Source: Stegostoma tigrinum
Taxonomy: Eukaryota
Direction: 5' to 3'
NCBI RefSeq assembly: GCF_030684315.1
Contig: NC_081391.1
Span: forward strand, 13,431,342-13,495,341
DNA length: 64,000 nucleotides
Shown: one piece after another, positions 1 to 35,012 of the stretch
Layout of the letters: the number at the start of each line of letters is the position of its first letter
How positions within the stretch are numbered: position 1 is the first letter of the stretch
The notes under the pieces: generated by a model
What the model saw: only the letters and a program-made list of their open reading frames with translations
Databases searched by the model: none
What the model was told of the DNA's origin: nothing
Position numbers and translations under genes: made by a program

Positions 1-75
1 AAGAGTGATTGGCCTTCACTGATGATCTCATTTCCTGCTTCATAAAATGAGTGTTGGCTCCTCGGGTATAAATAG
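1..75 (+). promoter_or_regulatory. Proximal promoter of copy A (partial)
   Basis: Inverted CCAAT (GATTGG, 7-12), ETS-like TTTCCTG (31-37), TATAAA (67-72). Same block as upstream of the other copies. Confidence 0.7.
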
Positions 76-160
76 AGTCCCAGGGCAGGGATGTTTATTG
101 TTGTTCTTAACTTTGTTATTTTTGTGGTGTGGAAACTAAAGCAAGCTTTTCCTTTATATG

Positions 161-3100
161 ATGGCATCCCAGATCATGCAGAACTATCACCAGGATTGTG
201 AAGATGCTGTCAACAAGCAGATTAATGTGGAGCTCACTGCCTCCTATCTCTATCAGTCTTTGGTGAGTGGTGTCTCTGTTGGGTGAAACATACTTCTGTT
301 CTGTTGAAGTGAACTCTTCCCCTTGGATGTAATTAAGTTGTCTATCTTATAGACTGAGTTTTGTGGCTCCTACCTCTTTCTCACTGCAGGATGAGTGTGA
401 TGTTACTATAACAATAGTTTGGTGTCTAATGTACTCTAACTTGGGTCCCAGTTGGTTGTCAGTGAGATGTGGAGGGTGGAGTGTTCTTGTAGTTACTTGC
501 CTGTCCCATGATGGTGCTGTGACTGGTGGTAATTATCGCTTCCTGTGACTTTGTTTGAAACTTGAGGGAACTAATTTAAAAACGAATTGGGACTCACCAT
601 TGTGGGAATGGAAGCACCATCGGCTAGTCACTGCTCTTCTTTTCCTCCTTGTATCCTTGCTTGTATTTGAATTTTGTGGTGATCCCAACTTAACATCTCA
701 AATAAACTTGATTTCCGATTGCAATCAGCTTAGAATAGGCTTGTTCTAGCCCTGCAGAGCTGGGCTGAGAAGTGGCAAATGGAGTTTAATGCAGACAAGT
801 GTGAGGTGATGCACTTTGGTAGGAGTAACCAGCAGGCAAAGCACGAGGCTAATGGTAAGATTCTTAGTAATGTCGATGAGGAGAGAGATCTCGGTGTCCA
901 CGTAAACAGGTCCTTGAAAGTTGCCATCCAGGTTGACAGGGCGGTTAAGAAGGCAGTGTTTTCTCTTTGATTAATAGAGGCATTGAGTTCTGGAACCAAG
1001 AGGTTATGGTGAAGCTGTACCAAACTCTGGTGTGGCTGCACTTGTAGTATTGTATACAGTTCTGGTCACTGCATTATAAGGATGTGGAAGCTTTGGCAAG
1101 AGTGCAGAGGAGGTTTACTAGGATGTTGCCTGGTATCGAGGGAAGCTCTTATGAGGAAAGACTGAGGGACTTGAGGCTGTCTTCATTGGTGAGAAGGTTG
1201 AGAGTTGACTTAATTGAAACATATAATATTCTGAGGGTTGGAAAGGGAAATCCTCTTTCTGCGGACGGTGAGCATGAGGGGGCATAGCTGTAAATTGAGG
1301 GATGATAGATATAGGACAGATGTCTGAGGTAGTTTCTTTACTCAGTAGTAAGGGAATGGAATGCTTTGCCTGTGACGGTAGTAGATTTGCCAACTTTAGG
1401 TACATTTAAGTCGTCATTGGACAAGCATATGGACGTACAGGGAATAGTCTAGGTTAGATGGGCTTGAGATCAGTATGACAAGTTGACACAACATCTAGGG
1501 CCTGTACTGTGCTGTTATGTTCTAGTTTCAGATTAAACTGGGTGAGGTTGTGACTGGTATCTGATCAAGCAGATCTCCATTTGAGATCTACTTTGCTTTT
1601 TTTCATACTCATGAGGTGGGTGTGGGCTGTCTGTATATCAGTGTTGGAGCTTTTCCAAGGCATGGCACTGCCGTGGGGCTGAGAATGTGCGGAGGGTACT
1701 GACCCAGTGAATATGGAAAAAATAGCTTATTCCTGTTGTATTTGGCCTGACTCTAAACTAACTAGCCCCTCTTTCCCCAGGTGGTTGGGTGCCTGTGCCC
1801 TTCCAAGGGGTAGAATGTGTTTAGAAGGTGTTAGAAGTAACCTTAGTGAGTGTTGCCGGGTGCTCTCTGGGCTTGTGCTTGTCAGCAGGAAGTCCTCTCA
1901 TGATGAGGATCAAGTCCCTGTCAGCCCCACTTTGGGAGGTGGCAACAGCTTTCATTGAGCCAGCAGTTCAGTTTTAATCGCTGACCCATGTTCCTAACAC
2001 AACTTGGAAGCATGTCCCAAGAGTAAAATCTCCACTATTCTACATCTTCTAACTGCCCATTTAAATGGGCAATGATAAATTGTGCTTGTGTTTGCATTTG
2101 ACAATTAAAGCAACTTTTTTCAGCAGGATTCCCAAGAATGTGTGTCTTAGTAGCTGCTTCCAATAGCAGACCTGGTAAACCTGAATACATTGAATTGTGA
2201 ACATCCTGGTTTAGAAATCTACAGGACTTTGCCTGTTGGATTAAGTCAACAGTAGCATTTCCAGGTTACTGTTTTAATAAGTGATGTTGTCTAGAGAGTA
2301 GGTGATCTGCAGGTCACTGTCATATTTGTCATGTGATCAGTTTGTTTTGTCAATCAGTGTTTCATGTGTAATGGTACAAGTTGCTAGCAGTCTCAGTACA
2401 GCTGTTTTAGATGCAGCAGTAAACTGTATCTAGAACAATCCAAAGACTGTCCCGAGGCAGGCTTTCCTTGGCAGATTCTTGGTGCCCATGTCCTTCATTC
2501 ATCCCTTCCCCCTCACCCCAGCCACCCCACTACTGCAGCCCTTGTCAAACTAATAGATACAGTGCATCCAATTGCATTGATCCTGACTAAGCAGAAAATG
2601 TGCTCCTTCCTAGCTGTTAGTTGCAGTGTCTGGGATCTGTTTTCTGGCCTTTGCCAAAGGAGCAATAGCGTGCCCTGCAGCTGTTCTATTGGTGCACATC
2701 CTGCATTCCAGCTTCTGGCATTTCTTGAAACCCTATTCAATCAGTAATTTATCCCATTTCTGGTGGAGGTTAATCAGTAAAAACATCAATTCACACTTGT
2801 TCTCACCCAATGCTGTGCCAGACCCACTGAGCAATTTGCCAGGAGTTTCAAACCAAAATAAAACACATGGTGTTTACAGCTTACCTGGAGGAAGCTGGGA
2901 TTGTTTTGATTTTTCCAATTCAACAGGAACTGCTCAAAACTGGGTTCTGAATTGTTAATGCATCAGGTACTTAACAGCTTATTGTCAGTCTGATTTTTAG
3001 AATGCTCAAGTAGCCCTGGAGCTCTGAACTAAAATTGGCCCGTGACTTGTTAATGGGCTTTACCTTGATCTCCCTTCCAGATGTCCTACTTTGACCGGGA

Positions 3101-5340
3101 TGATGTTGCCCTCCCCCATGTCTCCCGCTTCTTCAAACATCAGTCCAGGAGAAGCGGGAACATGCAGAGAAGCTGCTGAACTTCCAGAATCAGCGTGGAG
3201 GCCGGGTCCTCCTCCAGGATGTGAAGGTTGGAGTTGGGTGGGGTGGGGGTTGGGATGGTAATGGCTGCTCTTGTGGTGTGGTTTCAAGTCAGTGACAAGG
3301 TTTTCATTTGAGTCAAAACTTTGTTCGGCCTGTTTGATCTCCTTTTTGAAGCCAGTGTAGAAAGAAGCCCTTTGGCCCACCATGTCTTTGCTGACCCCAC
3401 AAACACTAAAGCACATTAATCCCATTTACCTTCCCTTGGTCCACAGGCCACTGTCCTGGCACTATATACTTGTCCAGCTGGACCTTAAACTGATCTGGAG
3501 TAGCTGACTCCACCACCATCCAACCCTTTATGTGGTTCATCTCATATTTCTAACCTCCCCCTCGGAGGAGGGTGAAGAGAACGTTTCCTCCAATCCCCTC
3601 TAACCTGCTTACTCCACAAACCTGGTTTCTCTCTGGTCTTGCTGTCTGCTATGGGGAAGACATTCCATCAACTGGCCACTCTCTATTCTTCAATAGTTAC
3701 ATCAGGTCACTCCCTCAGCCGTTCCTGCTCCACAGAAAATCCCAGCCTATCTAACCTCCAATCAATGGATCTTGGGCAACAGCCTGGGCAACCTCACCAG
3801 CTTCCCCCTGCAGTGCCATCCTGTCCTTGTGACTGGTGAGGCCCAAGAGGGAATCATGTGGTGACTAGAAGAACAAACTGTGACAAGACTGGCCCCCTTC
3901 CTGTTCCACCACACCCAACTAATAGAGGTTGCTTGCCCTCTGTCACTGTTACACCCTGTTGACCTTGTCTGAACTTTGAGGGATCTATGGTTTTGGGCCT
4001 TTCTTAACTGTTAGCAGCACAACACACTTTGCAAACACCTCGCTGTCCCTTGGATGAATTAAATAGCCGTGATGTTTCTGATCATCCTGCTCAGGCATGT
4101 ATGAAGCCACCAGCACAAGTGGTACTTGAACCTTGGCCTTGTCAGCCAGAGACAGGGGCACTACCACTGTACCATGACAGCATTTAGGATTCACTCGTGA
4201 ATATCCTCGCAATTCCATCAGATGGACCCTGATGCAAATCTTGTCATTATCCCCCACAATGACCTGTTATTCAACTTCCTCCTTCAGATCAAGGACCGAC
4301 AGGCAAGGTGAAAGCAATTCTGAAGGAACTGTTCTTCAGCTGTGCTCCAGGGCTGCCTCAGGGGCTAGCAGTGTTCTCAGTGCTAGGGACGCAGGTTTTG
4401 ATCTGGCCTCTGGTGAGGGACTGGTGTTGACATGTCCTCCCCATGTCTGCGTTGGTGTCCTCATAGTATAAGAGGATTGGCCATCTGAAATGCAGGGTTA
4501 CAGGAATAGAGGGGGAGTGGGATGAGCTGGGATGCATTTCAGAGCAGTTCTGCACTGATCGATGTTGTAGAGATTCTGAAGCTTCACTTTCCTTCTTTCC
4601 ATCCTCAGAAGCCAGAGAGGGATGAGTGGGGTAACAGCCTGCAGGCGATGCAGGTTGCCCTGGATCTGGAGAAGAATGTGAACCAGAGTTTGCTGGATCT
4701 TCACCAACTTGCCACAGCCCAGACTGACCCTCATGTAAGCTTCACCACTTCATTCTCTTCACTGCTGGTCACTCAGGGTAACACCTTCAATGGTTGGTCT
4801 TTTGTGGATTAGAAGTTGCCTGCTGTCTCAGACAAGTACCATTTGGATCTCTTCAGATCCGTACCAATGCTTATAATCTGATCAGCTCAGCAATCAAGTA
4901 AAATGGGAATTTGGATTATAATCTAGTAGGAGTGATGAAGTGATATTGGCCACTGAATGCTCATCCAGGATTATTGCAGTGGAATGATCACTATCCATCA
5001 TAATCCAACACAGCATCACTTAACAAACTGCAAGAGCAGTTGAAATACATGGTCCTCACTGGCATAGTCTCCAGGTGTTAGGTTTTCAGGGTAGTCTAGA
5101 GCTCATATGGCTGAGTGTTTTGCAGTAGGAAATCTGAGGTTGTCTTGGATAGCATTAATGCTGCAAGTTGTCATATTCTTGCAGCTGTGTGACTTCCTGG
5201 AGACTCACTATTTGGATGAGGAGGTGGAGATCATCAAGCAACTTGGGGACTACATCACCAACCTGAAGCGCCTGGGAGCCCCTGAGAATGGGATGGGAGA
5301 GTACCTGTTTGACAGGCTCTCCCTGGAGGACAGCAGTTAG
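161..5340 (+). pseudogene. Ferritin copy A (M/L-like subunit), frameshifted in exon 2
   Basis: Exons 161-262, 3081-3226, 4609-4734, 5185-5340 with GT..AG introns at canonical vertebrate ferritin positions. Exon 2 is 146 nt instead of 147: CAGTCCAGG at 3141-3149 versus CAGTCCCAGG in other copies, giving an early TGA. This single C loss in a homopolymer could be a sequencing error. AATAAA at 5469-5474. Confidence 0.8.
752..1524 (+). mobile_element. 5'-truncated CR1 LINE in intron 1 of copy A
   Basis: ORF2 C-terminal peptides [17 protein letters not shown] and RVQRRFTRMLPG, followed by a CR1 3' UTR ending GTTCTA. Confidence 0.9.
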
Positions 5341-7034
5341 TGTGGCCTGGAGTACTGTCTGCTTGGTCTGAATGCATTCCCCACTTCACCCTGGGCAATC
5401 TGTCTCCTTCCAGGGGGAAGGAATTTTGTAGCAAAGAATGTAATGGCTGTACCAGCTGAATGGAAATGAATAAAATGATATATTGATATTGGTTTTTGTC
5501 CATCATTTTGAGACCATTGATACCTTTCTTTGGTCAATCAAGCTTTCCTACTGAAGTTCACCCCCCCCCCCGCCCCCCCCCCCCCACACTGTGGACAGAC
5601 TCTAGGCCTATGGGAGCCAGTTCAGGTTCAAATCGGGGCCTGTGACCTACCCTTGCAATAGCCATTGACAGTTGGCCCCACTGACCAGTTCGCATTTAGT
5701 TTTGTCAGTTGTCTGCTGCTCCTCCCAGGGCACCTTGGGGTTTTCTAAATAACTGTCTTGGTTTAACTGCATTGATCTCTTTTCCCAGAAGCAATCCAAA
5801 ATTTGTCTTCCAAGTGGCTTCATCAGTTTTTTTGCTGTCTTTCCTTCACCCATGGGCTCAGCAACTTTCTCTTCTCCACCCCACCCTGCCTGCCCCCACT
5901 GGAAATAACTGGAAGTCTGCCAGCCCTGAGCTGGGGAAATTCGGCCCAAACTTTCACAACAGTCACATTCCAGGGAATTGGCTCCAGATTCTCTGGGGCT
6001 ACCTGATTGATAGTGGATGGTCTTGATCCCATAAAGACAAGGATTGGTGACCTGGGGCTTGGATGATAGCCCACGGTTTAAAAATACTCCCATTTGGTTT
6101 ATGCTTGCAGCTACAACTGGCTTCTTACTGTCGAAGGGTTTGTATGAAAAGCTGCTGCCTTGGTTCTTGGAACCTTTCCATGGGCTGAAGGCTCTTTTTC
6201 TTTTGACACGCTTCAATTTGAACGAGTGAGGGAGCAGGGATTTCTGGGGAAGGTTGGGACTGTCTCCTTCAGACAAGATGCCTGGACATGCTGACATTCC
6301 TATACAGCTGTTTCCTTGATCATTCAAGGTGTCAGATCATGGCTGAGGGAGGGGGGTGAACAGAGACAGCCCAGAGTTTGTCTTGAGTTTTGTCGAAGTG
6401 CACACTACAGCCTTAGGAAGAGTGTGGGTCATTAAGGTACTGAATATATTTGTTCCATCACAATAATCCTTTTTATTTTGCCCAGTCTCAATCCTTGGTG
6501 ATAGAATCCCTACTCTCCTGGAAGAGGCCGTTTGACCCACGTAGTATCAACCTTCTGCCCAACATCCTGCTCAGTCACACCACAGTCCTTTGACCCTGTG
6601 TTTCCCCTGGCCCCTCTCCCCTCAAACCTGTGCCCTCTAGTTTTGGACTTCCCTACCCTGTCGCAGCATGCTTTTTATATACAGTCATTCTTGAGTGTGC
6701 CAATGGCAAGGCTACATCTAGTGCTCAGCAGCTGGTTATTACAGACCGTCTGGTGTAGGAGACTCTGGAATGATGCTGCTGAGGAGGGGCTTCTGGGATT
6801 TTCATTCACAGAAAACCCTGAGGCCTACTGTGTATACGAGTCACTCAGCACATTTAGCATCTTGCTTTTCAAACTGGGATTCATGAGACCCTAAGTCCCA
6901 GGGATCACAGCAGATTCAGAACAGATCTAAAGGACATCGGTTGCCTGTATTAGACGATCCAAAAGCATACTATTCTGTTGCTGCGCAGAAATAGGAAAAT
7001 GTTCATATCAACCAAATCTGGGCATTTTAGAAAG

Positions 7035-8509
7035 ATGAGATTAGCCAATGTTGTTTCCCCTGTTCAGAGGATCGCAAATGTGGTTCCCCTGTTCAAGAAG
7101 GGGAGTAGAGACATCCCTGGTAATTGTAGACCAGTGAGCCTTACCTCAGTTGTTGCTAAAGTGTTGGAAAAGGTTATAAGGGATAGGATTTATAATCATC
7201 TAGAAAAGAATAAATTGATTTGGGATAGTCAGCACGGTTTTATGAGGGGAAAGTCATGCTCATGCCTCACAAACCTTATTGAGTTATTTCAGAAGGTGAC
7301 TAAACAGGTAGATGAGTAAACTGGTTGATGTGGTGTATATGGATTTGAGCAAGGCATTCGCTGAGCTTCTAAGGTTCCCCACAAGAGGCTATTGTACAAA
7401 ATGTGGAGGAATGGGATTGTGGAAGATATAGCAGTTTGGATCAGAAATTGGCTTGCTGAAAGAAGACAGAGGGCGGTAGTCGATGGGAAATGTTCATCCT
7501 GGAGACCAGTTACTAGTGGTGTACTGCAAGGGTCGGTGTTGGGTCCACTGCTGTTTCTCATTTTTAATAGGTGACCTGGATGAGGGCGTAGAAGGATGGG
7601 TTAGTAAATTTGCAGACAACACGAAGGTCGGTGGAGTTGTGGATAGTGACGAAGGATGCTGTAGGTCGCAGAGAGACATAGATAAGCTGCGGAGCTGGGC
7701 TGAGAGGTGGCAAATGGAGTTTAATGCAGACGAGTGTGAGGTGATGCACTTTGGTAGGAGTAACCGGAAGGCAAAGTACAGGGCTAATGGTAAGATTCTT
7801 GGTAGTTTAGATGAGCAGAGAGATGTCGGTGTCCATGTACACATATCCTTGAAAGTTGCCACCCAGGTTGACAGGGCGGTTAAGAAGGCATACAATGTTT
7901 TAGCTTTTATTAATAGAGGGATCGAGATCCGGAACCAAGAGGTTATGGCGAAGCTGTACAAAACTCTGGTGCGGCCGCAATTGGAGTATTGTGTACAGTT
8001 CTGGTCACCCCATTATAAGAAGGATGTAGAAGCTTTGGAAAGGGTGCAGAGGAGATTTACTAGGATGTTGCCTGGTATGGTGGGAAGGTCTTAGGAGGAA
8101 ATGCTGAGGGACTTGAGGCTGTTTTCATTAGAGGGAAGAAGTTTGCGAGGTGACTTAATTGAAACATATAAAATAATCAGAGGGTTAGATAGCGTGGATA
8201 GGGAGAGCCTTTTTCCTGGGATGGTGACAGCGAGCACGAGGGGGCATAGCTTCAAATGGACGGGTGAAAGATATAGGACAGATGTCAGAGTTTCTTTACT
8301 TGGAGAGCAGTGAGGGAATGGAACGCTTTGCCTGCAACGGTAGGAGATTCACCAACTTGAGGTACATTTAAGTCGTCATTGGACAAGCATATGGACGTAC
8401 ATGGAATAGTGTAGGTTAGATGGGCTTCATATCGGTATGACAGGTCGGCACAACATCGAGGGCCGAAGTGCCTGTGCTGTGCTGTAATCTTCTATGTTCT
8501 ATGTTCTAT
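7035..8509 (+). mobile_element. 5'-truncated CR1 LINE upstream of copy B
   Basis: RT motifs [51 protein letters not shown], with frameshifts and a (TTCTATG)3 tail. Confidence 0.95.
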
Positions 8510-8679
8510 GGCTCCAACAGCAACGTTCAAAAGTTATGACGAATAATCCCTCAGATTAACAATCCGACAGAATTCTGCAAATCTGTGATGACTGTGTCTT
8601 CACGCACAACCTCAGATAGAAAAGCGAAGGTTTAGAGTATATTTTATTGTCATTTTGTGGCAAATACATTTACAGAATG

Positions 8680-8885
8680 TGCACTTGTAGAGGAGGTCAA
8701 AGATCATTCAGCAATTCCATCATCGACCAGTTGTCAACCGTGATTCGTTTCTGGATCCAGTTCCCATCCTGCACTGATTGGACGTGGCAACTGATCAATT
8801 GATTAACAAGAGTGATTGGCCATCACTGATGATGTCATTTCCTGCTTCATAAAAAGAGGGTCTGCCCCTGGGGTATAAATAGAGT
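8680..8885 (+). promoter_or_regulatory. Conserved promoter block, copy B
   Basis: DR1 variant AGGTCAaAGATCA 8694-8706, two ATTGG boxes, ATCAATTGAT palindrome, ATGATGTCAT-TTCCTG, TATAAA 8874-8879. Confidence 0.72.
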
Positions 8886-8966
8886 CCCACGGGAATGATG
8901 TTGATTGTTCTTCCTAATTTTGTTATTTTGGTGGTGAGGAAAATAAAAGAAATTTATTGTCACAAG

Positions 8967-11900
8967 ATGGCCTCCCAGATCAGTCAGAACTATCACCAGG
9001 ATTGTGAAGCTGCTGTCAACAAGCAGATTAATGTGGAGCTCACTGCCTCCTATCTCTATCAGTCTTTGGTGAGTGCTGTCTCTCGGGGTTAAACATATAA
9101 ATCTGTTCTGTTGAAGTAAATTCTTTGCCTGGCCTCTAGTGAAGCTGACAATCTAGTAGATTGAGGTTTTGTGGCTCCTACCTAAATATCAGTTCAGGAT
9201 AGAGGTGGTGTTACTATCACGATGGTGTAGGATACTGATGTATGTTAACTCAGGTCCCAGTTGGCCTTCAGTGGTATCTGGAGGGTAAAAGCCTCTTGCT
9301 TTTTTTTTCTTTCTGACACAAGTTTCCTGACTTCATTTGCCTGATCTCTGTGGTGGTCCTAAACAAACATGCTGATTTTTTTTAACACTGACAATAACAA
9401 TAACTTCCCTGTTGCAGTGGCCCTTGTTAGTCTGAACAAACCTGAGGCTAGTCTGTGACTGGTATCTATTTTATGTGGATCTCCTTCATTGAGGCTGACT
9501 TGGCTTTACTTGTATTTATTCAAGAGGTGGGTGTGGCCTATCCCGTCCCTACTGAGAGTGGATCTGCCGTGTGTGAGAAATGTTGGATCCCCTCTCTGCC
9601 CCCTCTCCACCCCACACTGGGGCTGCAGGAATGTGCTGAGGCTATGAGCCCAGTGACATTGAAGAAATGGAGGTTGTTCCCATATCATTTAGCTTGACCT
9701 AAAACAAAATGTCCCCTCTATCCTGGTGGTGATGTGACTGTGCCCTTCCAAGGAGTAGAATGTGCTTGGAAGGTATGTGTTGAAGTAACCTTGGTGAGTG
9801 CTGCAGGGGACCTGGTAGCTAATGGACCCTGAAAGGAGGTGGTGAATGCAGTCCCCATGAAGTGGGCTGCCCTGTCCTGGATGATGTCTGCTTCTTGCAT
9901 GTTGTAGCTCCCCTTCTACAGACACACGGGGAATATTCATCTCTCTCTGGGCTTGTGCCTATTGGAAGGAAGTTGTCTTATAATGAGGACTAAGTCCCTA
10001 TAAGCCTCACTTGGGAGGTGGGACCGCTTTAATGGTGAGCCAGTTGTTGGGGTTTAATCACTGTGTCTCAACTCTATTGGCACATGCTTCCCAAGGATAA
10101 AATCCCGACTATCTTCTGCCACAACTTGTAACTACCCACTGAAACCACAGATATTTGCTTGCCTGACTGTGGTTTTTGGATTTGAGGATTAAAGTAACTT
10201 TACAGGAGTCCTTCCCCAGAATGTAATTCTTAGCTGATGCTTCCAATAGCGAGCATTAGCTCTTAAACCCTTACATCGAATTGTGAACATGACAGTTTAG
10301 ATATGAGTCACATAGGCTGAAAACCTACAGGATTTTTTGCCTGTTTGGGTAAAGTCAGGGCAAGTGTTTTTCCAGGTTACTGTTTTCACTAGTGACGTTA
10401 TCTACAGGCCACTAATAGTTGACATTTGATCATTTGTTTTGCAATTTGTTTCAGTCATGTGACTTGGTGCAAGTTTCTGACAGCCGGAGTTTGCACTATT
10501 TAGGCAGAGCAATAACCCACTGCTGCAACGATCCAAAGGCTGTTACTGGGCAGGCTTTCCTCGGCATTATCTTAGTGCCAAACTCCATACTGGAGACAGC
10601 ACACCTTTGTAGAGTTCATGTGTACACTTACATCCCAATCTCATTGATCCTGGGTTTGCAGAAAACATGCTCCCTACTAGTCGTTGACTACAGCAGGGTT
10701 TCAACATCTTTTTTCCAGTTTTCCCCAAAGGCAAAACATAGTGCCTTGCGTCTTGTAGTTGAGAACTGGAATGGGGAGTGAGCCAGTGATGTCTGATGTA
10801 ATTTTAACTTGATCTTCCAGATGTCCTACTTTGACCAGGACGATGTTGCCCTCGCCCATTTCTCCCGGTTCTTCAAAGATCAGTCCCAGGAGAAGCGGGA
10901 ACATGCAGAAAAGCTGCTGAAATTCCAGAATCAGCGTGGAGGCCGAGTCCTCCTCCAGGATGTGAAGGTTGGGGTTGGGTGGTGGGGGAAGTGCAGGGGG
11001 GAATGGCTGCTCTTGCGGTGTCATCTCCAGTGACAAGATTTTCAGATCCTGAGCGAGTGTGAGAAGTTCTTTTGCTTGGCTTCCCTGTTTGCTCTCCTCC
11101 ATCTCCAGTGTTTCAGCATTTATGCAAGCCCTCTGGTCCACCAGGCCTATGCTGACGCAGCAAAGACCGAACTGTACTCACCCTGTACTTGGTCCAGGCC
11201 CTACTATACCCTAGTGTTTAGCACTCGCCCAGCTAGTCCTTTAAACAGTGCTGCAGTAGCCGTTTCCAGCACTTTGTTCTTCCGTTCCCCAACACACCCA
11301 CCAAATTTCCTCCAATCCCCTCTATCCTGCTTCCTCAAACCTGTGCCCTCTGGTCTGAGTGTCTGCCATGGGGAAGACATTTTCCCCATCTACTGTCCAG
11401 ACTTCCTTGTCTTCCATCAAACAACCACCTCAGCCTCACCTGCTCAAAGGAAAACCCCCAGCCCATCCAATCTCTCTCCTCAATGGATTTTCTGTCTTGG
11501 CGAAACAACCTGGGGACCCTCACCAGCACCCCCTGCAGTAGCATCCTGTCCTTCTGACCAGTGAGGCCAACGATAGAATGCAGCAGAGACCGGAAGAACA
11601 ATTTTCATAAAATGTGTTCAAAGGACTTGTCCCTGTGCTGTTCCTCACAACCCTGCCCCAAACTAACATGTTACTTGGCCTATGTCCCCTTTCACACACA
11701 GTTTGCCTTGTGTGAGCATTGAGGGATCGATGATCCTGTGTTTATTGTAAGCACATTACTGCCCCCCACAATGAATTCAAGTCATGATGGTTCTGACCAT
11801 GCTGCTCGGGCATGTATGAGGCCACAAGCACAAGTGAGACTTGAACCTCAGCCTTGTCAACCGGAGCTTGGGACACTACCGCTACTTCCCCCACAGCCCT

Positions 11901-13119
11901 TGGGATTCACTCCTGAATATCCTTTTTAAGACTCCAGCAGATGGACACTGGTGCAAATGACTAATCTGGTACATTTTTATTCCCTGTGGTACAAGGATAC
12001 GTTCCTGAGCTTCCGGCTTCAGGTCAAGGATAAATGGGGCAAGGTGAAAGGAGTCACCAAGTAGCTAATGTTTTCTTTATCTGGACTTCAGGGATGGCAC
12101 AGTGGCTCAGTGGTTGGCACTGTTGACTCAGTGCCAGGGGCACCAGTTTGGTTCTGGCCTGTGACGAGAATTTAAACGTTATCCCAAAGCATGGCTTCCC
12201 CACACAGTAGAAAAGAGGATTGGCAACTTGAAATGCAGGTTACACGAACAGGGTGGGAATGGGACCAGATGGGATGCTCTTCAGCAGTTATGGTCTCAAT
12301 GGGGTGAATGGCCAGCTCCCATGCTGCAGGGATTCTGTTTCTAAAGCTTACCTGTCCTTCTCTCCATCCCCAGAAGCCAGAGAGGGATGAGTGGGGTAAC
12401 AGTCTGCAGGCAATGCAGGTTGCCCTGGATCTGGAGAAGAATGTGAACCAGAGTTTGCTGGATCTCCACCAACTCGCCACAGCACAGACTGACCCTCATG
12501 TAAGCTTCACCTCCTCATTCACATCACTGCTAGACTCTCAGGGTAATGTTTCATTGGTTGGTCTGTGTGGATTGGAAATTCACTAATGTAACACTTTCCA
12601 TCCATTACTTTCCTGAACTATTGTAACATTGATCACTTGGGATCATACTGATTACAATGAGGTATAAGGGGAATTTGATCTCGAATCTAGTGGAAGTGCT
12701 GAAATGACGTTGGCCACTGAGTTCTTCATTAGTATCATTGCAGTGGAATGATCATTGTCCATCACAATCCAACTCAGCTCCATTTCACAAACAGCAAGAT
12801 GCAGCAGCTGACATGTTGTCCTCACTGGCACAAATTCTCCAGGTGTTAGCTCGCTTTTCAGGGCTGTCCAGAGCTAGTCATGGCTAAGTCTGTCTTGCAG
12901 TGGGAATTCTGAAATTGTCTTGGATAGTATAAATGTACCAAGTGTCATATTCCTCTGTTGCAGCTGTGTGACTTCCTGGAGACTCACTATTTGGATGAGG
13001 AGGTGGAGATCATCAAGCAACTCGGGGACTACATCACCAACCTGAAGCGCCTGGGAGCCCCTGAGAATGGGATGGGAGAGTACCTGTTTGACAGGCTCTC
13101 CCTGGAGGACAGCAGTTAG
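8967..13119 (+). CDS. Ferritin copy B, intact 176-aa M/L-like subunit
   Basis: Exons 8967-9068, 10821-10967, 12374-12499, 12964-13119 (102+147+126+156 nt). They splice to [176 protein letters not shown]. Confidence 0.93.
9735..10060 (-). mobile_element. Old non-LTR LINE fragment in intron 1
   Basis: The reverse-strand peptide [16 protein letters not shown] resembles a LINE ORF2 C-terminal D.IQ.KA.R.I motif. Related sequence is found in intron 1 of the other copies (about 1790, 19180, 27690, 35780, 43930, 51960, 61600). Confidence 0.45.
12090..12337 (+). mobile_element. tRNA-derived SINE (HE1/V-SINE-like) in intron 2, ending just before exon 3
   Basis: Head GGGATGGCACAGTGGCTCAGTGGTTGGCACTG (A-box) and CR1-like tail GAATGGCC..CCATGCTGCAGGGATTCT. 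Paralogues at about 4355-4578, 21828-22140, 30055-30280, 38137-38385, 46549-46803 and 54365-54612. Confidence 0.75.
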
Positions 13120-14769
13120 TGTGGCCTGGAGTACTGTCTGCTTGGTCTGAATGCATTCCCCACTTCACCCCATGCAATCTGGCTCCTTCCAGGGAAAAGG
13201 GGCTTGTAGCAAAGCATGTAATAGCTGTACCAGCTGAATGGGAATGAATGAAATGTATTGATGTTGCTTCTTGTCCATCATTGAGACCCTTGATATTAAA
13301 GAGCTTTTGAGAGCTTCAAGCCTGTAATTTTGGCTAATGAAATTATTAATTTGACAAAATATTTCCCTGGTCTTCCCTCCAACACCACCGCAGCATCAGT
13401 CTCGGAATTCCCGTGGAACTTCCTCTAAGTTATGAATCGAAGTTATTCCCCCAGCCAGAACTTGAGGTTGGGGCCTGCGGGGTGTAAAATCAGTTTGTAC
13501 TATTATCTCACACCCAAGTATGATGAATACACGTGCAGCTAAAATTTTCATTGCTCTCAAAAGAGAAAACACCCCTGCTTTGCCGAAAGAAAGACTTGAC
13601 ACCCACTTTCACTGAAACAGGGCTGTTGGATGCTTTATGTTCATGTCTAGTTTGCTTAGCAATAGCTTCCCTGTCAACATCCACCAACCGAGACTTATTG
13701 CTAAAGTCCACACAAATCACAAGTTGATGCCAACGTAAATTCTGTGCCAGCTGGCTCGGCTTGCCTCAACAAGAGCTTAAGGGAAGAGACCCAGCAGCGT
13801 CCCCCCTCTAGCCTTGTGGAGGAAACAGCAATGCTGGGAGCAATAAACTTAAACTTAGCAACGGGGATCTGACACACCTGGTCTATTCTATTCAAATCAA
13901 TGTTATTACTTTCTCCGGACAGTGCATCCTAGATTCACTGAGACCCAGTTGAGGTTCAAGCCAAGACCAGCCCTGTGGCCTCCTGACCCCCACCACCAAC
14001 TGCCTGCCTCAGGACAGCCATCAGCAGTTGCTCACAATGACCAGTTCATTTGTTCCTTCGCCTGAGGAACATGCGCTGCTCTCCCAGGGGATATGGATTA
14101 AATACCCATTGTAGCTCGACAAGAAAGCTCACACGGGGGGAACCATTTCCCAGGAGTAATCCAAAGCTGTCCTAATGTGGTTTTGCTCCATTTCCTTCCT
14201 TGCTCTCTGCCAGGTCTTGGTCAGAAACACCACCACGCCTAGTAATAAACTTTAGGCCTGCCAGCCCAGAGATGGGAATATTCAGCACAAGTCTGCTTGA
14301 AAAAATTCACCTGAACTGGATGCACTTAATGCTACCGACAGCAGGATAACAGTGACCTGGGAATGACACAGCAACGCTCCTGGTTAAATGCTGCCATTTG
14401 ATTGGCTCTTGCTGCTAAAGCCAGCATTGAGCGCACTAAGCTGCTCCCTTGGTTCCTCTGAGCTTCCCCCACGGGGAGGGTTACTCCTGATGCAGGTTGA
14501 TTTCACCCGATCACATTGAAGGAGCAGTGTGACTCAGGGAGGAGACCTGCAGATGCTGACTTTCCTGAATGGTTGCTTCCTTTATCTTTCGAGGTGTCAG
14601 AGATCGTGGTTTAGGGAGGGGGCTATCAGAGACATCCTGGGGAATGTTTCAGGGAGTTTTGTAGCGAGTGCACACTGCAGCCTTCACTGAGGGTGTGGGT
14701 CTTTAAGGCACAGAATGTATTTGTTCCACCACGTAGAGTTTTATTTTAAACCATCTTGAGTCTTGCGTG

Positions 14770-15075: not shown

Positions 15076-15864
15076 AAGTTACAAAAAACAGGAACACTCT
15101 TTTGCATAGAATTAGAGTGAATGACTCATTTCTTACGGAAACAGACCCTTCGGTCCTACCCGTCCATGCTGACGGGGTTTCCCAACCTGACATAGCCCCA
15201 CTTGCCTGCCTTTGGCCCATATCCTTCGAAACCATTCCTTTCCATGTAAATCTCCAAATGTCACTTAAATGTTGTAATTCTAACTACATCCACCACTGTC
15301 TCTGACAGCTCGTTCTAAACATACACACCACCTTCTGTATGAAAATGTTGCCCCTCATGTCCCCATCAAATCTTACCCCTCTCCCCTCAAACCGATGCCC
15401 TCTAATTTTGGACGCCCCCCCCCCTACCCTGTCCCAGCATGCTTTTTATATACAGTCAATCTTGAGTGTGCCAATGGCAAGGCTACATTTAGTGCTCAGC
15501 AACTGTTACACTTCAGGAGGTGGTGATGAGCTGCTTATTACAGTCCACCTGGTGTAGGAGAGACCGGAATGATGCTGCTGCTGTTGCTGAGGAGGGGCCA
15601 CTGGGATCTTCACTCACAAACACTGATATTATTCCAAGTCAGGATGGTGACGGATTTACTTGGAGCTGCTTCAGTGTCACTGGGGCGCCATTGAGCTGGA
15701 AAATTGCAAGCTTCTCCAGCATTATTCCCAACTTCAGTCTTATCGATGGTGGACAGACTCTGAAAAGTCTGAAGTAGAGTTATTCACAACAGAATTCCCA
15801 GACTCTGACTTGGTCTCAAAGCCATGAGCACATGAATTAGGACTGACCTCTGCCCATGGTTTCT

Positions 15865-17298
15865 TAGAAAATAGAACCTAGAACAGTGCAGCACAGTTCA
15901 CGCCCTTCAGCCCACGATGTTGTTTCGAACTTTTATCCTAAACCCAAGGCCTATCTCACCTCCACTACCTTATACTATCATCCATATGCTTATCTAATAG
16001 CCGCTTAATTGCCCCTAACGAGGCCGACTCCACGACACTCTCTGGCAATGCATTCCACGCCCCAGCCACTCTCTGAGTAAAGAACCTGCCTCTGACATCC
16101 ACCCTATATCTACCTCCACTCACTTCAAAACTATGCCCCCTCATAATAGCTAACTCCATCCTAGGAAAAAGTCCCTGGCTGTCTAATCTGCCTATACTTA
16201 TGATCATTTTGTACACCTCTATCAAGTCACCTCTCATCCTTTGTTCTGAAGAGAAAAGCCCTCGTTCTCTAAACGTTTCTTCGTAAGATCTTCCCTCCAT
16301 TCCAAGCAACATCCTGGTAAATCTCCTCTGCACCTTTTCTAACACTTCCACATCTTTCCTAGAATGAGGTGACCAGAACTGGTCACAATACTCTACATGT
16401 GGCCAAACCAGGCTTTTGTATAGCTGGAGCATAACTTCACAGCTCTTGAACTCAATCCCTCTATGAATGAAAGCTAACACACCACATGCCTTCTTAACAA
16501 CTCTATCCACCTGACTGGCAGCTTTCAGGGAACTGTGGACATGAACCCCGAGATCCATCTGCTCCTCCACACTGCCAAGAATCTTTCCGTTAACCCTGTG
16601 TTCTGCTTTCAAATTTGTCCTTCCAAAATGAATCACTTCACGCTTTTCAGGGTTAAACTCCATCTGCCACTTCTCAGCCCCACTCAATACCCGACCAATG
16701 TCCTTTTGTAACCTAGAACAGCCCTCCACACTATCCACAAGTCAAATCACCTTCGTATCTTCCAAAAACTTACTAATCCGCCATTCCACTCCTACATCCA
16801 AATCATTTAACAAAATCATAAATAAAAGAGGACCCCGAACAGACCCTTGAGGTACACCACTCGTAACTGAGCGCCATGTTGAATATTTTCAGTCAACTGT
16901 CACCCATGTCTTCTATGGGTCAGCCAATTCTGAATCCAATCTGCCACATTTCCCCCGTCGCATGCCTCCTGACTTTCTGCATGAGCCTGCCATGGGGAAA
17001 CTTATCAAAAGCCTTACTTCAATACATGTATCCCACATTCACTGATCTACCTTCATCCACATGTTTGGTCATCCCTTCAAAGAATTCAATCAGATTTGTG
17101 AGGCATGATGTACGCCTCACAAATCCACACTGGCCATCACAAATCATACTGTGCCTGTGCAAGTGATAATTAATTCTGTTTCTTAGAGCCCTTCCCATTA
17201 ATTTGCCCACCACTGGCATAAGACTAGCTGGCCTGTAATTTCCAGGGTTACCCCATTCCCTTTTTTGAACACATGAATAATATTCAAACTTGTCATTC
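15865..17298 (-). mobile_element. 5'-truncated CR1 LINE upstream of copy C
   Basis: ORFs 15965-16738 and 17019-17300 (NPGNYRPASL, CLTNLIEFFE, WQMEFNPEK). TAGAA-type tail at about 15865-15885. Confidence 0.95.
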
Positions 17299-18039
17299 AA
17301 AGCTAAAAGATAGCACTAGATTGCATCCTGCTTTTTGAAGCAGATATTGAGTGAAAGTAACTTGCTTCCACCAATCTGTACATCAGTGCTGTGATCAGAC
17401 TCGAACGTTCATTGGGGATCCTCAATTCCCAAAGCCTCACAGGCCACCAGTCCATGGGAGGCTGCTCCATTCAACGCAGTTTCTGAGCCATACATTCTAC
17501 AGAATGTAATGTAAACAGGACCAGCAACTCTCCACTTGGAAACATGCTGGACTTAAGCTCTCGATTTACTTCATTCAATTAAAAACCAAACTTTGCGAAA
17601 GAAAGTTTGCATGTGCTATACATTTCCAGCAGCAATGTAGACAGGGAGGTGTGAGGTCTACTATGCAGGAGAGGCACTCAGCACATTTAGCACCTTGCTT
17701 TTCAAACTGCACTTCATGAACCCAACGTCAAGGAGATCACAGCAGATTCAGAATGGATCCACAAAGGAATGAGCTTCCTGTATGAGGTAACCCAAAAGCA
17801 CATTGTTTCTGTCGCGGCACAGCAATAAGAAAATGTTTACTGTTAACAAAATCTGGCCATTTTTCAATGGGCTCCAACGCTGTTATTCAACAAGTACAAA
17901 GACTAATCCCTCAGAGTAACAAACTGACAGAATTCTGCCAATCTGTGATGAGTGTGTCTTAAGATATAATTTCAGATACAATCTTGAAGTTTTAGAGTAT
18001 ATTTCATTGTCATTTTCACAGAGAAATATTTCCAGGATT

Positions 18040-18245
18040 TGCACTTGTGCAGGAGGTCAAAGGTCAGTCAGCAATTCTATCATCGACCCGTTGTCAATTC
18101 TGATCGTTTTCTGGATCCAATTCCCATCCTGCACTGATTGGACGTGGCAGCTGATCAATTGATGAACGAGAGTGATCGACCATCACTGATGATCTCATTT
18201 CCTGCTCAAGAAAATAAAGGGCTGCTGCTCGAGTAAAAAAAATGT
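18040..18245 (+). promoter_or_regulatory. Conserved promoter block, copy C
   Basis: Perfect DR1 18054-18066. The proximal CCAAT is mutated (GATCGA) and the TATA is mutated. Confidence 0.6.
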
Positions 18246-18336
18246 CCCAAGAGAGTGATGTTTATGGTGTAGTTGGTTATCTTTCCAAGTTTGTTATTTG
18301 ATTTTGGAGGAAAAGGAAAGCTATTTTCTTCATAAA

Positions 18337-21300
18337 ATGGCCTCCCAGATTCGTCAGAACTATCACCAGGATTGTGAAGCTGCTGTCAACAAGCAGATTA
18401 ATGTGGAGCTCACTGCCTCCTATCTCTATCAGTCTTTGGTGAGTTTTGTCTTGATGGAGTTAAAATTAAATCTATTCTGCAAAAATGAGCTGATCCTCTT
18501 GTTTCAAATTAACTTCATAGTCTTGTAGATTTGAGGTGTTTAAGTTTGCACCTTTAAAAATCATTTTGGGATAAATGTAGTGCCCTTTGGTAACAATGGA
18601 TTTTGATATTGATGTGCAGTATCTAATTCACCAGCTGGGATTGAGTGATAGATGGAGGGCAAATTGTTCTGTCAATTATTTTACAATTTACTGCCAGGCC
18701 TTTGCCTGGTGGTAACTGTCATTTTCCTCCCCAGAATTGACCAAACTTTACTAAAATTAGATGTAATGGTGTTGAGAGTTGTATGCACCCCTTGGCTAGT
18801 CATCCTGTAACATTTTAATATACCTTGATCACACTTACTTTGTGCTCTGATCCTAAATACACATCATGCCAGTTTCCATTCTGTGATGGAGAATGATGGC
18901 AGTGACTGGCTTCTCTGAGCATATGCATGTGTAACTTGCATTGAGGAGGCCTCAGATGTGGACTAGTTGGCTTTCTGCATTCTCAGTTCATGAATGGACT
19001 GTTAGTGGTCAGGAAGTCACTTGTTGTCCATTCCTCCAATAGATCAATGCTCTCCTGTGAGTGCATGCACAGGGTGTCTGGAATAACCTGAGGTCTTCAC
19101 TTCACCAAAAAAGGTGAAGAATTGGAGTTTCAAATTCCCACGGTATGGGAAATGGTGCCTTTCTCCAGGGAGCACTGTGCCTATGGCCTCTCAAAATGGC
19201 AGGCTATAATGGTTTGGAAATGTTGAAGCAGCTTTTGAAGGCTGCTAGGTACCTGGTAGATAGTGGACACTAGGAGTGCATTCACTCACTCCCTTCAATG
19301 AGGTGGGCTGCTCTGTCCTGCATAGTGTCTGCTTTGTGCATGTTGCAGCTCCACTTCTTGGGGGGAAAAAGGGAGAATATTCATCCCTCGTGGGGCTTAT
19401 CACTGAGAAGCATTCTCTTCCCACACTTTCAGGATGAAATCCCTGTACCCTTCCCTTTAGCAGGTGGGAACAGCTATCACCAATAAGCCTGTTGGGTCTT
19501 AACTGTCAGTGGTGTCCCATATCAATTGGGCAGCATGTGCCCAAACAACCCACTATTGTACATCTGTAAGATGCAGCTACCCAAGTAAAGTCAGAGAAAG
19601 TTGCATAACTGTTTTTCGACAAAAGAAACTTCTCAGCCTGATCAGTAGGAACTAGATAACCTGCTCTAACAAGGTGTAGAGCTGGATGAACACAGCAGGC
19701 CAAGCAGCATCGGGGGAGCAGGGAAGCTGATGTTTTGGGCCTGGACCCTTGAGAAATGGGGAGGGGAAGAGGTCCCTGAAATAGCAAGGGGTGGGGAGGT
19801 GGATGGATGAGGGATCAAGAAACAGGTGGTGAGGAGACTCCGGTCTGAGGTGAGGATGGAGCCAATAAAGTCAAGTGAGTTGGGTAGGCCTGTCCAGGGA
19901 GGTGGGGATGGGGTTTGAGGTGGCGGTGGGGGTGGGGTGGGGTGGTGTGGGGAAGTAGGTGGGAGGAAGGATGGACAAGTTAGGGAGGTGGGGACTAGCT
20001 GAGCTGTGACTGGGGGAAGGGAGATCTTTCAGCTTAAGTCCTCACTGATACCATTGGGCTGCAGGGTTCCCAAGCAGAATACAAGGTGCTGTTCCTGCAA
20101 CCTTTGGGTGGCATTGGAGGCCCAGAATGAACATCAACTGTCCCCTCCTGCTCCTCTGGAGGGGAAGTAGTTTGTGACTGGGAGGTGCAGCTGCTGATCA
20201 CGAGCCCAGCATAGGCACTCCACAAAGTGGTGTCAAGCCTCTGCTCGGCTTTCCTGATGTAGAGGAGGCCACGTTAGGAACAGTGGGTACAGTATATCTC
20301 ACTGCAGATGTGTAGGTCCACTTCTTCTTGATGTGGAAGGTCTTGGGGCCTGGGATGAGGGGAGGTGTAGCACAATCTGTGTGGCAGGAAAAAAGCCCTG
20401 GCTAGTGGAATGGACAAGGGAATCAGTGGTCTCTCCAGAAGGCAGCTATGGTTGGGGAGGTTAAAAAAATGTCTTTGTCAGATCGTAGATGGTATAAGTG
20501 CCAGAGGATGCTGCACTGGATCCTGTCATTGAGGTGGTACTGAAGGATGAGAGGATTCTGTTTTGGTTGTGTGCGGGATAAGATGCAAGACCGGTTGTGT
20601 TTTTCTTCCACTAAAGGGAAGTTACGCTCCCTCGGAAAACGAGGACATCTGGGATGCCCAGGAGTAGAATGCCTCCCCTCAGGGCTGGAGGTGAAGGAAT
20701 TGGATTAGGGGAAGGCGTTTTCCTTCCACAGGAAGGTGGGTGAGGTGTAATCTTGGTAGCTGTAGGAGTCAGTAGGTTTGAAATAGATCAAAGATTGATC
20801 GACAAACTTAAGGTTGAGGTAGAAGGTTCTAATGAATTAGAGGAACCGTTCAAGCTCCTTGTGGGATGTAATGGAGGAAGATGTGGAGTTTATGGCCCAT
20901 CTCCCTGTAGAAGGATTGTTCCACATATCCTAACAGAAGCAGGCACAGCCTGGGCCCATGCAGGTACCTATGGCCACCCCCTTCCTCTGTAGGAGGTGGG
21001 AGGAATTGAAGGAGAAGTTAGGGGTGAGGATGAGTTGGCTAGTGGAAAAGCTTGTTGGTGAATGGGGACCAGTCAGACCTGCAGGATGAGAGAAGCAGAG
21101 GGCCTTCGGCTATCTCCACGGGGAATGGATGAGGTTGGAGGCTGTGGGTGGGAGGTCATCTGCAGTGAGGTTGTAGATGGACGAGGAGATGGTTTGGTGG
21201 TCAGGGGTGGAGTCATGATCAAGGGCGGGGTGGTAGGAGGTATCGGCTGCTCTTCCACACAAGTATATGTGGCACTCCAGCTCCTGGCGTTTCCTTAAAC

Positions 21301-22905
21301 CCTGTTCAGTCACGAACTTCATCCAATTCTGATGGTGCTTAGAGTGGAAATGCTCTTCTCTCTACAGACAAGAACAGGCCTGGGCACCTCAGGTTTTTGT
21401 CAAGGAATTTTAAAAAGTGTTTGCCTGGTTACCAGGAGGAGGCGAGGGTTGTTTTTGATGATCCTTGAACTGGAGCCACTGGCTCATTGGACAATGGTTC
21501 TCATCCACCTTGATGTATTCAAAAAATTCATGTTTATTGACTTCTCAATTTGATTGAAGGCTAAACCAGTCATGTCTGGCACCAATTGTATGATGCTTAA
21601 TGGATATAACTTGTTTTCTCCCAGATGTCCTACTTTGACCGGGATGATGTTGCCCTCCCCCATGTCTCCCAGTTCTTCCAAGATCAGTCCCAGGAGAAGC
21701 AGGAACATGCAGAGAAGCTGCTGAAATTCCAGAATCGGCATGGAGGCAGTCCTCCTCCAGGATGTGAAGGTTGGTGTTGGGTTTTTGGGGTGGGGGGAGT
21801 TGGGTGGTAGAGAGTGGCTGCTCCTCAGGGATGGCACAGTGACTCAGTGTTTCCCATGCATGCCTCAGTGCCAGGGATCCAAGTTTGGTTCTTGGTTCTA
21901 GGCTCCAGTGAATGACTGGAGTTGACTTGTTCTTGCCATGTCCACATTGGCTTCACGGTTCAATGACGTGTGGGTTAGAAGGATTGCCATTTAAAATGCA
22001 GGGTTACAGGAATAAGAAGGGACTTGTAGCGATGAATGTAGTGGCTGTACCTGCCGATTGGGGATGAATAAAATGATGTTGTGACCTTGGTTATTGTCAC
22101 CATGACTCAAATAGCCTGTTCCCATGCTGCAGAGATTGTGAAGCTTACCTGTCCTCTCTCCATCCCGAGAAGCCAGAGAGGGATGAGTGGGGTAACAGTC
22201 TGCAGGCAATGCAGGTCGCCCTGGATCTGGAGAAGAATGTGAACCAGAGTTGGCTGGATATGCACCGAGTTGCCACAGCCCAGACTGACCCTCATGTAAG
22301 CCTTCCCACCACCTCCTCATTCTGATCACTGCTAGGCCCTCAGGGCAACACCTCATTGGTCTTTTGTAGATTAAAATTCACTCGGATACTTGGATCACAA
22401 TATCATATCTGAACAGTATGTTCATTTAATCAACATCAAAGCAGCTCAGCTATGAGCTGAAATGGGAATTTGGATTCACTACCAGGAGTGATGTTGGCCA
22501 ATGAATTCACTTTCAGGGCCACTTGCATTAGAATGATCATCGTCTGTCACAGTTCAGCTCAGCTCCATTTCACAAACAAGAAGGTGCATCTGGAACGTTA
22601 CTGTCCTCACTGGCGCAACATCTCCTAGATGTCAGTGGCTTTTCCAGCTGTCGAAAGCTAGTTATGTTGGGGTCTGTTTCGCAGTGGGAATTCTGAAATT
22701 TTCCTAGATCATGCAAATGTACCAAGTTGCCATAATTCCTCTGTTGCAGCTGTGTGACTTCCTGGAGACTCTCTATTTGGATGAGGAGGTGGAGATCATC
22801 AAGCACCTTGGGGACTACATCACCAACCTGAAGCGCCTGGGAGCCCCTGAGAATGGGATGGGAGAGTACCTGTTTGACAGGCGCTCCCTGGAGGACAGCA
22901 GTTAG
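18337..22905 (+). pseudogene. Ferritin copy C, frameshifted
   Basis: Exons 18337-18438, 21625-21769 (145 nt; 2-nt loss, GGCAGTC versus GGCCGAGTC near 21747), 22170-22295 (weak GAG acceptor), 22750-22905. The TATA box is degraded to TAAAAAA at 18234. It has several private missense changes (SWLDMHRV, ETLY, DRRS). Confidence 0.88.
19666..21260 (-). mobile_element. Degenerate Penelope-like retroelement in intron 1 of copy C
   Basis: The reverse strand gives an RT-like GVAIGTCMGP (about 20950-20980) and a GIY-YIG-like IYCTHCS*RGLLYI (about 20255-20297). A terminal GCTGGATGAACACAGCAGGCCAAGCAGCATC segment is shared with the insert at 57446. Confidence 0.8.
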
Positions 22906-25774: not shown

Positions 25775-25975
25775 TACTTGTGCAGGAGGTCAAAGGTTAA
25801 GCAGCAATTCTATCATCGACCAGTTGTCAATTCTGATCGGTTTCTGGATCCAATTCCCATCCTGCACTGATTGGATGTGGCAGCTCATCAATTGATTAAC
25901 AAGAGTGTTTGGCCATCACTGATGATCTCATTTCCTGCTTCATAAAATGAGTGTTGGCTCCTGGAGTATAAATAG
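25775..25975 (+). promoter_or_regulatory. Conserved promoter block, copy D
   Basis: DR1 variant AGGTCAaAGGTTA 25787-25799, distal ATTGG, TATAAA 25967-25972. Confidence 0.7.
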
Positions 25976-26060
25976 AGTCCCAGGGCGGGGCTGTTTACTG
26001 TTGCTCTTAGCTTTGTCATTTTGGTGGTGAGGAAAATAAAGCAAGCTTTTCCTTTATAAG

Positions 26061-33094: not shown

Positions 33095-34555
33095 GATGAG
33101 GATTGCAAATGTCATTCCCCTGTTCAGAGGATAGCAAATGTGGTTCCCCTGTGCAAGAAGGGGAGTAGAGACAACCTGGTAATTGTAGACCAGTCAGCCT
33201 TACCTCATATGTTGGGAAAGTGTTGAAAAAGGTTATAAGGGATAGGATTTATAATTATCTAGAAAAGAATAAATTGGTTAGGGATAGTCAGCACGGTTTT
33301 GTGAAGGGAAGGTCGTGCCTCACAAACCTTATTGAGTTCTTTCAGAAGGTGAGCAAACAGGTATTTGAGAGTAAACCGGTTGATGTGGTGCATATGGATT
33401 TCAGCAAGTCGTTCGATAAGGTTCGCCACAGTAGGCTATTGTACAAAATGCGGAGGAATGGAATTGTGGGAGATATAGCAGTTTGGATCGGAAATTGGCT
33501 TGCTGAAAAAAGACAGAGGGTGGTCGTTGATGGAAAATGTTCATCCTGGAGACCAGTTACTAGTGGTGTACTGCAAGGGTCGGTGTTGGGTCCACTGCTG
33601 TTTGTCATTTTTATAAATGACCTGGATGAGTTTGTAGAAGGATGGGTTAGTAAATTTGCAGACGACACTAAGGTCAGTGGAGTTGTGGATAGTGACGAAG
33701 GATGCTGTAGGTCGCAGAGAGACATAGATAAGCTGCAGAGCTGGGCTGAGAAGTGGCAAATGGAGTTTAATGCAGACAGGTGTGAGGTGATGCACTTTTG
33801 TAGGAGTAACTGGAAGGCAAAGTACAGGGCTAATGGTAAGATTCTTGGTGGTGTGGATGAGCAGAGAGATCTCGGTGTCCATGTACACAGATCCTTGAAA
33901 GTTGCCACCCAGGTTGACAGGGTGGTTTAGAAGGCATACAATGTTTTGGCTTTTATTAATAGAGGGATTGAGTTCCAGAACCAAGAGGTTATGGCGAAGC
34001 TGTACAAAACTCTGGTTAGGCCGCACTTGGAGTATTGTGTACAGTTCTGGTCACCCCATTATAAGAAGGATGTAGAAGCTTTGGAAAGGGTGCAGAGGAG
34101 ATTTACTAGGATGTTGCCTGGTATGGAGGGAAGGTCTTACGAGGAAATGCTGAGGGGCTTGAGGCTGTTTTCATTCGAGAGAAGAAGGCTGAGAGGTGAC
34201 TTAATTGAAACATATAAAATAATTCGAGGGTTGGATAAGGAGAGCCTTTTTCCTAGGATGGTGACAGCGAGCACGAGGGGGCATTGCTTTAAATTGAGGT
34301 GTGAACGATATAGGACAGATTTCAGAGGTAGTTTCTCTACTCAGAGTAGTGAGGGAATGGAACGCTTTGCCTGCAACGGTAGTAGATTCACCAACTTGAG
34401 GTACATTTCAGTCGTCATTGGACGAGCATATGGACGTACATGGAATAGTGTAGGTTAGATGGGCTCCATATCGGTATGACTGGTCGGCACAACATCGAGG
34501 GCCGAAGGGCCTGTACTGTGCTGTAATGTTCTATGTTTTATGTTCTATATTCTAT
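33095..34555 (+). mobile_element. CR1 LINE upstream of copy E (paralogue of 7035-8509)
   Basis: ORFs 33220-33930 ([28 protein letters not shown]) and 33946-34458, with a TTCTAT tail. Confidence 0.95.
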
Positions 34556-34930: not shown

Positions 34931-35012
34931 TCCCACGGGAATGATGTTGATTGTTCTTCCTAATTTTGTTATTTTGGTGGTGAGGAAAATAAAAGAAATT
35001 TATTGTCACAAG

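Follow-up and report, generated by a model that had tools for sequence, protein, structure and literature searches.

The window analysed here, a 64 kb stretch of DNA from the zebra shark Stegostoma tigrinum, holds eight ferritin genes arranged head to tail (A–H), and, judging from the sequence, none of them has a canonical IRP binding site in its leader. In vertebrates, cytosolic ferritin is the standard textbook example of a protein whose translation is controlled by iron. The reading that we prefer, with a probability of roughly 55%, is that the array genes have a short, unspliced and IRP-free 5′ UTR, that their output is governed by tissue transcription and copy number, and that they are expressed in the ovary, their products co-assembling for egg iron.

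Organization of the ferritin array

Self-comparison of the window places the start codons of A–H, all on the forward strand, at positions 161, 8967, 18337, 26061, 35013, 43409, 51186 and 60779. All four exons are present in seven genes (A–G), and H (60476–60880, promoter and leader included) is truncated by the window end, leaving exon 1 only. The preliminary description of this DNA had counted eight copies; eight ferritin starts are indeed there, but three of the genes are broken. Exon 2 is 146 nt long in copy A (161–5340; exons 161–262, 3081–3226, 4609–4734 and 5185–5340; AATAAA at 5469) and 145 nt in copy C (18034–22905 with its promoter region and leader), causing frameshifts in both, and copy F (43104–47550, likewise) is a pseudogene whose exons 2 and 3 contain in-frame stops. 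The frameshift in A may reflect one base lost in a short C run, be it a real loss or an assembly error. Intact ORFs of 176 aa are found in B (8967–13119), D (26061–31056), E (34720–39166 with promoter and leader) and G (50893–55394, likewise), the poly(A) signal of B and G being the weak AATGAA instead of AATAAA. Exon 2 of E has 100% identity to a Stegostoma tigrinum model whose contig contains many of this kind.

Several further features of the region deserve a record. The 5′ part of copy A is D-like, whereas 160 nt of its 3′ end have 100% identity with F (5052–5522 versus 47252–47710), which suggests a recombinant gene generated by unequal crossing-over. A LINE fragment on the forward strand (7090–8508, recognized by an RVT_1 match on the homologous element of copy G) ends 459 nt before the ATG of copy B; fragments at the same distance occur in E and G, bounding the common proximal block, and we take all three to be of the CR1 type. 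LINE reverse-transcriptase fragments in both orientations (720–1530, 7000–8500, 15700–16700, 26600–27430, 32900–34540, 41000–41930, 49030–50720 and 57640–59140) have been duplicated together with the array units. Many public database models of array genes are partial or fuse exons of neighbouring copies into proteins of 260–410 aa (P0002, P0003, P0004, P0005 and similar), and copy counts based on annotation are therefore unreliable.

Iron-responsive elements

The preliminary description had claimed that no 5′ UTR of the array contains an IRE, and this holds: the loop motif CAGTG or CAGAG occurs in none of the eight leaders, and neither a motif scanner nor a covariance model, the two kinds of scan that it had proposed (both run here on the window DNA), reports an IRE in any of them. 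The scanner was written from the SIREs rules with the two canonical loops (PMC2896125). It found no canonical IRE on the forward strand of the whole 64 kb, which is not an unusual depletion, since shuffled versions of the window yield 0–5 matches (mean 1.25). A relaxed superset of loops (with the 14–18 pair and C8 or G8), standing in for the 16 motifs of SIREs, gave 257 matches across the window and none between −110 and +30 of any of the eight ATGs. No leader has a loop of any kind with C8, and no SELEX-type loop variant within this superset lies near any of the eight ferritin ATGs. The combination that defines an IRP-regulated ferritin mRNA, i.e. a C-bulge, a 5-bp stem and a CAGWGH loop in the 5′ UTR, is thus not found in the array.

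As controls we used 80 animal ferritin transcripts, kept from 199 metagenome loci. The scanner detected an IRE upstream of the coding sequence in 38 of the 80, many of which have short leaders, and its background was a single match in 85,673 nt downstream in the control transcripts. The positive controls include a rodent-type L-chain mRNA (L044) with an IRE 170 nt 5′ of the ATG. The covariance model was built from 30 control IREs and scored 17–43 bits in 24 of 50 loci outside the training set, some of these being near-identical to training sequences. Its best match in the window reached 8.9 bits (E 4.6), none of the 14 window matches falls in a leader, and the leader of copy D scores 2.5 bits. 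Rfam likewise found no IRE in the window, which is a weak test, since it recognized one of 20 controls as against nine for the scanner. The idea, arrived at by eye for copy A, that a leader retains a decayed IRE was rejected (p ≥ 0.34 in 24 of 24 comparisons). No shark locus, as assessed from identity and the lack of introns, was present among the 80 kept of the 199 metagenome loci, and the viral contigs contained no shark ferritin locus.

Promoters and leaders

The segment between TATA and ATG had been described as T-rich and 90–100 nt long. Its T fraction is indeed 0.35–0.41 across the eight copies and its measured length 93–105 nt, but a cap is expected about 25–30 nt past a TATA box, which would leave a true 5′ UTR of about 65–80 nt. 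In copy A, where the TATA box occupies 67–73, the putative T-rich 5′ UTR would accordingly extend over 92–160. The TATA box itself, reported for all eight genes, is an exact TATAAA in six, and C and F deviate.

Identity in the six pairwise comparisons of B, C, D and F is 84–93% over the 200 bp before TATA, 51–75% in the leader, 57–73% in the introns and 86–92% in the 3′ UTR. By this measure the promoter is constrained and the leader, which diverges at an intron-like rate, is not. The conserved block has the anatomy of a promoter, with a DR1-like repeat at −180 (7/7 copies, exact in five), an inverted CCAAT at −97 (7/7) and another at −59 (5/8), and a CRE-like plus ETS-like block at −44 from TATA, which is found in all eight copies and nowhere else in the window. 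These motif names are our own assignments, and the motifs themselves are generic. Motif comparison places the proximal promoter of copy A at 8–37 (inverted CCAAT at 8–12, CRE-like plus ETS-like block at 23–37). The promoter and IRE-less leader of B span 8674–8966 (TATA at 8874; DR1-like repeat at −180, inverted CCAAT at −97 and −59) and those of D 25767–26060 (TATA at 25967), the latter including the acceptor-like tract flagged in the preliminary description; the TATA boxes of E, G and H lie at 34920, 51093 and 60676. That the genes are controlled transcriptionally, as had been proposed, would fit both the missing IRE and the contrast between promoter and leader, and the earlier interpretation is supported in part.

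Two other segments stand out by their conservation. The 3′ UTRs (13120–13280 and homologues) are as conserved between paralogue lineages as the promoter is; gene conversion could account for this, or else selection for an element in the 3′ region. A block in intron 1 of B (9778–9960) is common to divergent copies, with matches at 19221, 43928 and 61660, and is covered by far more DNA contigs than the neighbouring intron; it is possibly an enhancer or a repeat.

Active site of the encoded proteins

The array proteins have the features of cytosolic ferritins: a ferritin domain (PF00210, E 6.7e-36 on P0009, a model 97% identical), about 176 aa encoded by four exons, no signal peptide, and an N-terminus that aligns with frog M ferritin from residue 1. 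Numbered by the latter protein, the intact copies B, D, E and G all carry K58, E137 and I140 and keep E23, H61 and E103, so that the catalytic set of H/M-type chains (E23, E58, H61, E103 and Q137) is incomplete. Among the Stegostoma models, site 58 is K in 40 of 58, E in 12 and unscored in six, a biased sample rather than a census. K58 corresponds to human Glu62Lys, a change reported to be sufficient to abolish ferroxidase activity in the germ-cell ferritin FTHL17 (PMC7760355), and the array proteins are thus probably ferroxidase-deficient, L-like cytosolic subunits.

Comparison with known ferritins puts these features into context. Among solved structures, amphibian and fish M ferritins match best (176 aa, E about 1e-84), and they presumably share the four-exon layout; the shark proteins differ from them by Glu58Lys, Gln137Glu and Asp140Ile. 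K58 and E137 are also present in all four tetrapod L-chain sequences of our set, but FTL has an IRE (as in control L044) and has lost Glu23 and His61, both of which the shark proteins keep. FTHL17, which we take to be H-derived and intronless, was outside our tree, and it differs from the shark genes, which have retained their four exons and exist in far higher numbers. What FTHL17 shares with them is Glu62Lys, and it combines this with lack of ferroxidase activity, germ-cell expression and multiple copies in mouse (PMC7760355). The absence of an IRE has its own parallels, as FTMT is described as free of IRE/IRP control (PMC7760355), and an IRE is reported to be missing from nearly all of the atypical invertebrate ferritins whose sites are altered (PMC8395497); the shark genes differ from these in being vertebrate, intron-containing and massively tandem and in lacking a targeting peptide. 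The preliminary description had suggested, from the missing IRE and the altered active site, a distinct function for the array. This calls for qualification: Glu62Lys is of the ordinary L-chain/FTHL17 type, and IRE-less atypical ferritins, the shark cluster and its ovarian expression had already been reported.

Relationships among shark ferritins

In a tree of 74 sequences, all shark proteins with K58 form one clade (14 sequences, support 100/99) that extends across four shark orders and comprises Heptranchias, Mustelus, Cetorhinus, Carcharodon and four carpet-shark genera, with Heterodontus and Scyliorhinus assigned to it by cluster membership only. The window proteins thus belong to a multi-copy clade spread across the sharks. 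E137 is confined to the eight carpet-shark sequences, and Q137 is found in all six other shark sequences with K58. A second expanded clade (22 sequences, 100/92) has mostly kept E58 and Q137, and a third (seven sequences, 100/92) contains about one gene per species and represents the ordinary gene. The two expanded clades are joined at 94/82 only. The K58 sharks and tetrapod L chains are separate in the free tree, and the AU test does not reject their joint monophyly (p 0.327). The window proteins combine K58 and E137 as tetrapod L chains do, and the IRE in the 5′ UTR that an FTL orthologue would have is missing from the array; K58 may have arisen by convergence or reflect orthology with FTL, both of which fit the AU result (p 0.33).

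Some database entries are worth noting in this context. Residues 547–721 of P0001, the end of a Heterodontus model, represent a divergent ferritin falling outside the three shark clades. Pristiophorus (clusters P0176–P0190) has several large clusters with an intact site and no sequence with K58 among the best 120 of 1647 hits, so that the K58 clade may be reduced in this genus. Shark-type ferritins are also filed under Salmonella and Aeromonas (P0269, P0294, P0297 and P0195); P0294 has the same sequence as a white shark model, a sign of contamination by shark cDNA.

The expansion as such is known from other sharks. The Greenland shark genome has been reported to contain 155 FTL and 179 FTH1 copies in clusters syntenic with those of the white shark, and the largest cluster, with 104 ‘FTL’ and 118 ‘FTH1’ copies, to be expressed specifically in the ovary (10.1101/2024.09.09.611499). 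The zebra shark array resembles these clusters in belonging to a shark-wide expanded clade, and carpet sharks have Gln137Glu in addition. The preprint's passage on ferritin is silent on IREs, promoters and active-site residues. We infer that its ‘FTL’ label denotes the K58 clade and that the two Greenland shark types correspond to the two expanded clades. Ferritin is not mentioned in a second preprint on the Greenland shark (10.1101/2025.02.19.638963), and in listings of the open-access literature we found no statement that the shark array lacks IREs.

Expression and control of the array

We envisage the array as one block within an ancient tandem cluster of ferritin genes that extends across the sharks. 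Transcription would start from the compact, conserved TATA/CCAAT promoter just 5′ of the ATG exon and yield a short leader, and because this leader lacks an IRE, IRP1/2 would be unable to hold translation down at low iron. How much protein is made would then depend on tissue-specific transcription and on gene dosage. The ovary is the most likely tissue, and there the chains may co-assemble with catalytic chains of the sister clade into bulk cages for maternal iron storage. The ovary report concerns another species and consists of one sentence of a preprint that is not assigned to K58 copies (10.1101/2024.09.09.611499), and the three broken copies and two more with a weak poly(A) signal count against our explanation.

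The same IRE-free, promoter-driven design might serve myeloid cells of the epigonal organ, in iron withholding or antioxidant immunity, or another somatic tissue, rather than oocytes, which we regard as rather unlikely. The DR1-like repeat of the promoter is not known to be oocyte-specific, and the invariant pairing of an ETS-like with a CRE/ATF-like site in all eight promoters would suit such cells. The shark ovary is, moreover, embedded in the lymphomyeloid epigonal organ (PMC5568229), and a tandem expansion of fthl27 in snailfish is broadly expressed and tied to oxidative stress (PMC10746142). Expression of the Greenland shark cluster, on the other hand, was specific to the ovary among the tissues of that report (10.1101/2024.09.09.611499), and the repeated inverted CCAAT would fit NF-Y, which is needed for transcriptional activation in mouse oocytes (PMC13060261), though NF-Y is ubiquitous.

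It is less probable still that we are looking at a birth-and-death array, mostly silent or decaying, in which the copies lack an IRE because they are hardly expressed, and their promoters and exons resemble one another through gene conversion. In favour of this are the three broken copies, the altered TATA of C, the AATGAA signals of B and G and the many fused or partial database models. Signs of homogenization do exist: the synonymous difference between B and D is 0.10, compared with an intron divergence of about 30%. This contrast suggests that both selection and gene conversion have been at work, and conservation is a weaker proof of selection because gene conversion may homogenize exons and promoter. 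Continued function is nevertheless favoured by pN/pS values of 0.19–0.32 in all six pairs of intact copies, by the retention of full-length members of the K58 clade in several shark orders, by the uninterrupted, mRNA-derived K58 ORF of P0297 and by the reported expression of the cluster (10.1101/2024.09.09.611499).

Finally, the ‘leader’ could be intronic, either as a complete intron of 95 nt from a G-TATAA donor to the AG-ATG or as the last part of one that begins at a distant, possibly shared exon, but this is very improbable, and an IRE-bearing exon makes up a small part of that small chance. A splice site is suggested by the intron-like divergence of the leader, by GTA ahead of the TATA-like run in 8/8 copies and by an AG that directly precedes the start codon of five copies (B, D, E, F and G), all four intact ones among them. 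This AG is missing from A, C and H, however, the pyrimidine fraction of the tract is 0.47–0.71 compared with a mean of 0.80 at 20 real acceptors of these genes, and an A at −3 in all eight copies explains AAG as start context. Even with a short intron, the block upstream lacks an IRE. The spacers before B–H lie fully in the window (3155–5384 nt) and contain no IRE according to both scanner and covariance model; therefore an IRE could come only from an exon, common to the copies, that lies beyond the window, as does the region 5′ of copy A. The preliminary description's own caveat about an upstream exon is thereby largely removed, save for such a shared exon.

An unspliced leader is also hinted at by P0297, an mRNA-derived sequence whose 631-bp contig is catalogued as bacterial. 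Its uninterrupted ORF reproduces a white shark K58 model exactly and has 17 additional in-frame residues before the Met. Back-translated, this extension matches the window leaders in register (p 0.005–0.017 in 6/8; 0.09 and 0.12 in A and F), in a post hoc test in which the copies are not independent. It does not match the sequence 5′ of the donor-like site (p 0.34–0.90), and the N-terminal extensions of three other models, taken as controls, do not match the leaders. P0297 thus appears, with modest confidence, to keep the leader unspliced. Contigs from four runs of one sample cover introns, include no joint of exons 1 and 2 and so behave as DNA. Among their listed joints, five of 12 exit the promoter and resume close to the ATG, in agreement with further copies that have the same promoter and exon 1 and divergent leaders. 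None of the 24 loose contig ends listed, out of 325, has CAGTG or CAGAG; they are too few and too short to survey the array.

Implications for shark ferritins

The shark ferritin cluster and its expression in the ovary were known; the regulatory and active-site description is what the present analysis adds. An IRE-less, promoter-constrained, intron-containing multi-copy family would give the reported but unexplained expansion a regulatory logic, and counting array copies as extra iron-regulated FTH1 or FTL genes, for example in arguments about longevity, is likely wrong. The questions of how large shark eggs are loaded with iron and whether L-type chains arose twice become testable. More tentatively, the clusters might constitute a system of maternal iron provisioning kept since before the major shark orders split, in which hundreds of co-expressed catalytic and Lys62 L-like genes are released from IRP and driven by an oocyte promoter. 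If that were true, gene dosage rather than cellular iron would set the output of ferritin cages for very large yolky eggs, and in sharks the H/L division of labour would have been invented independently for a second time, together with a vertebrate yolk-ferritin system.
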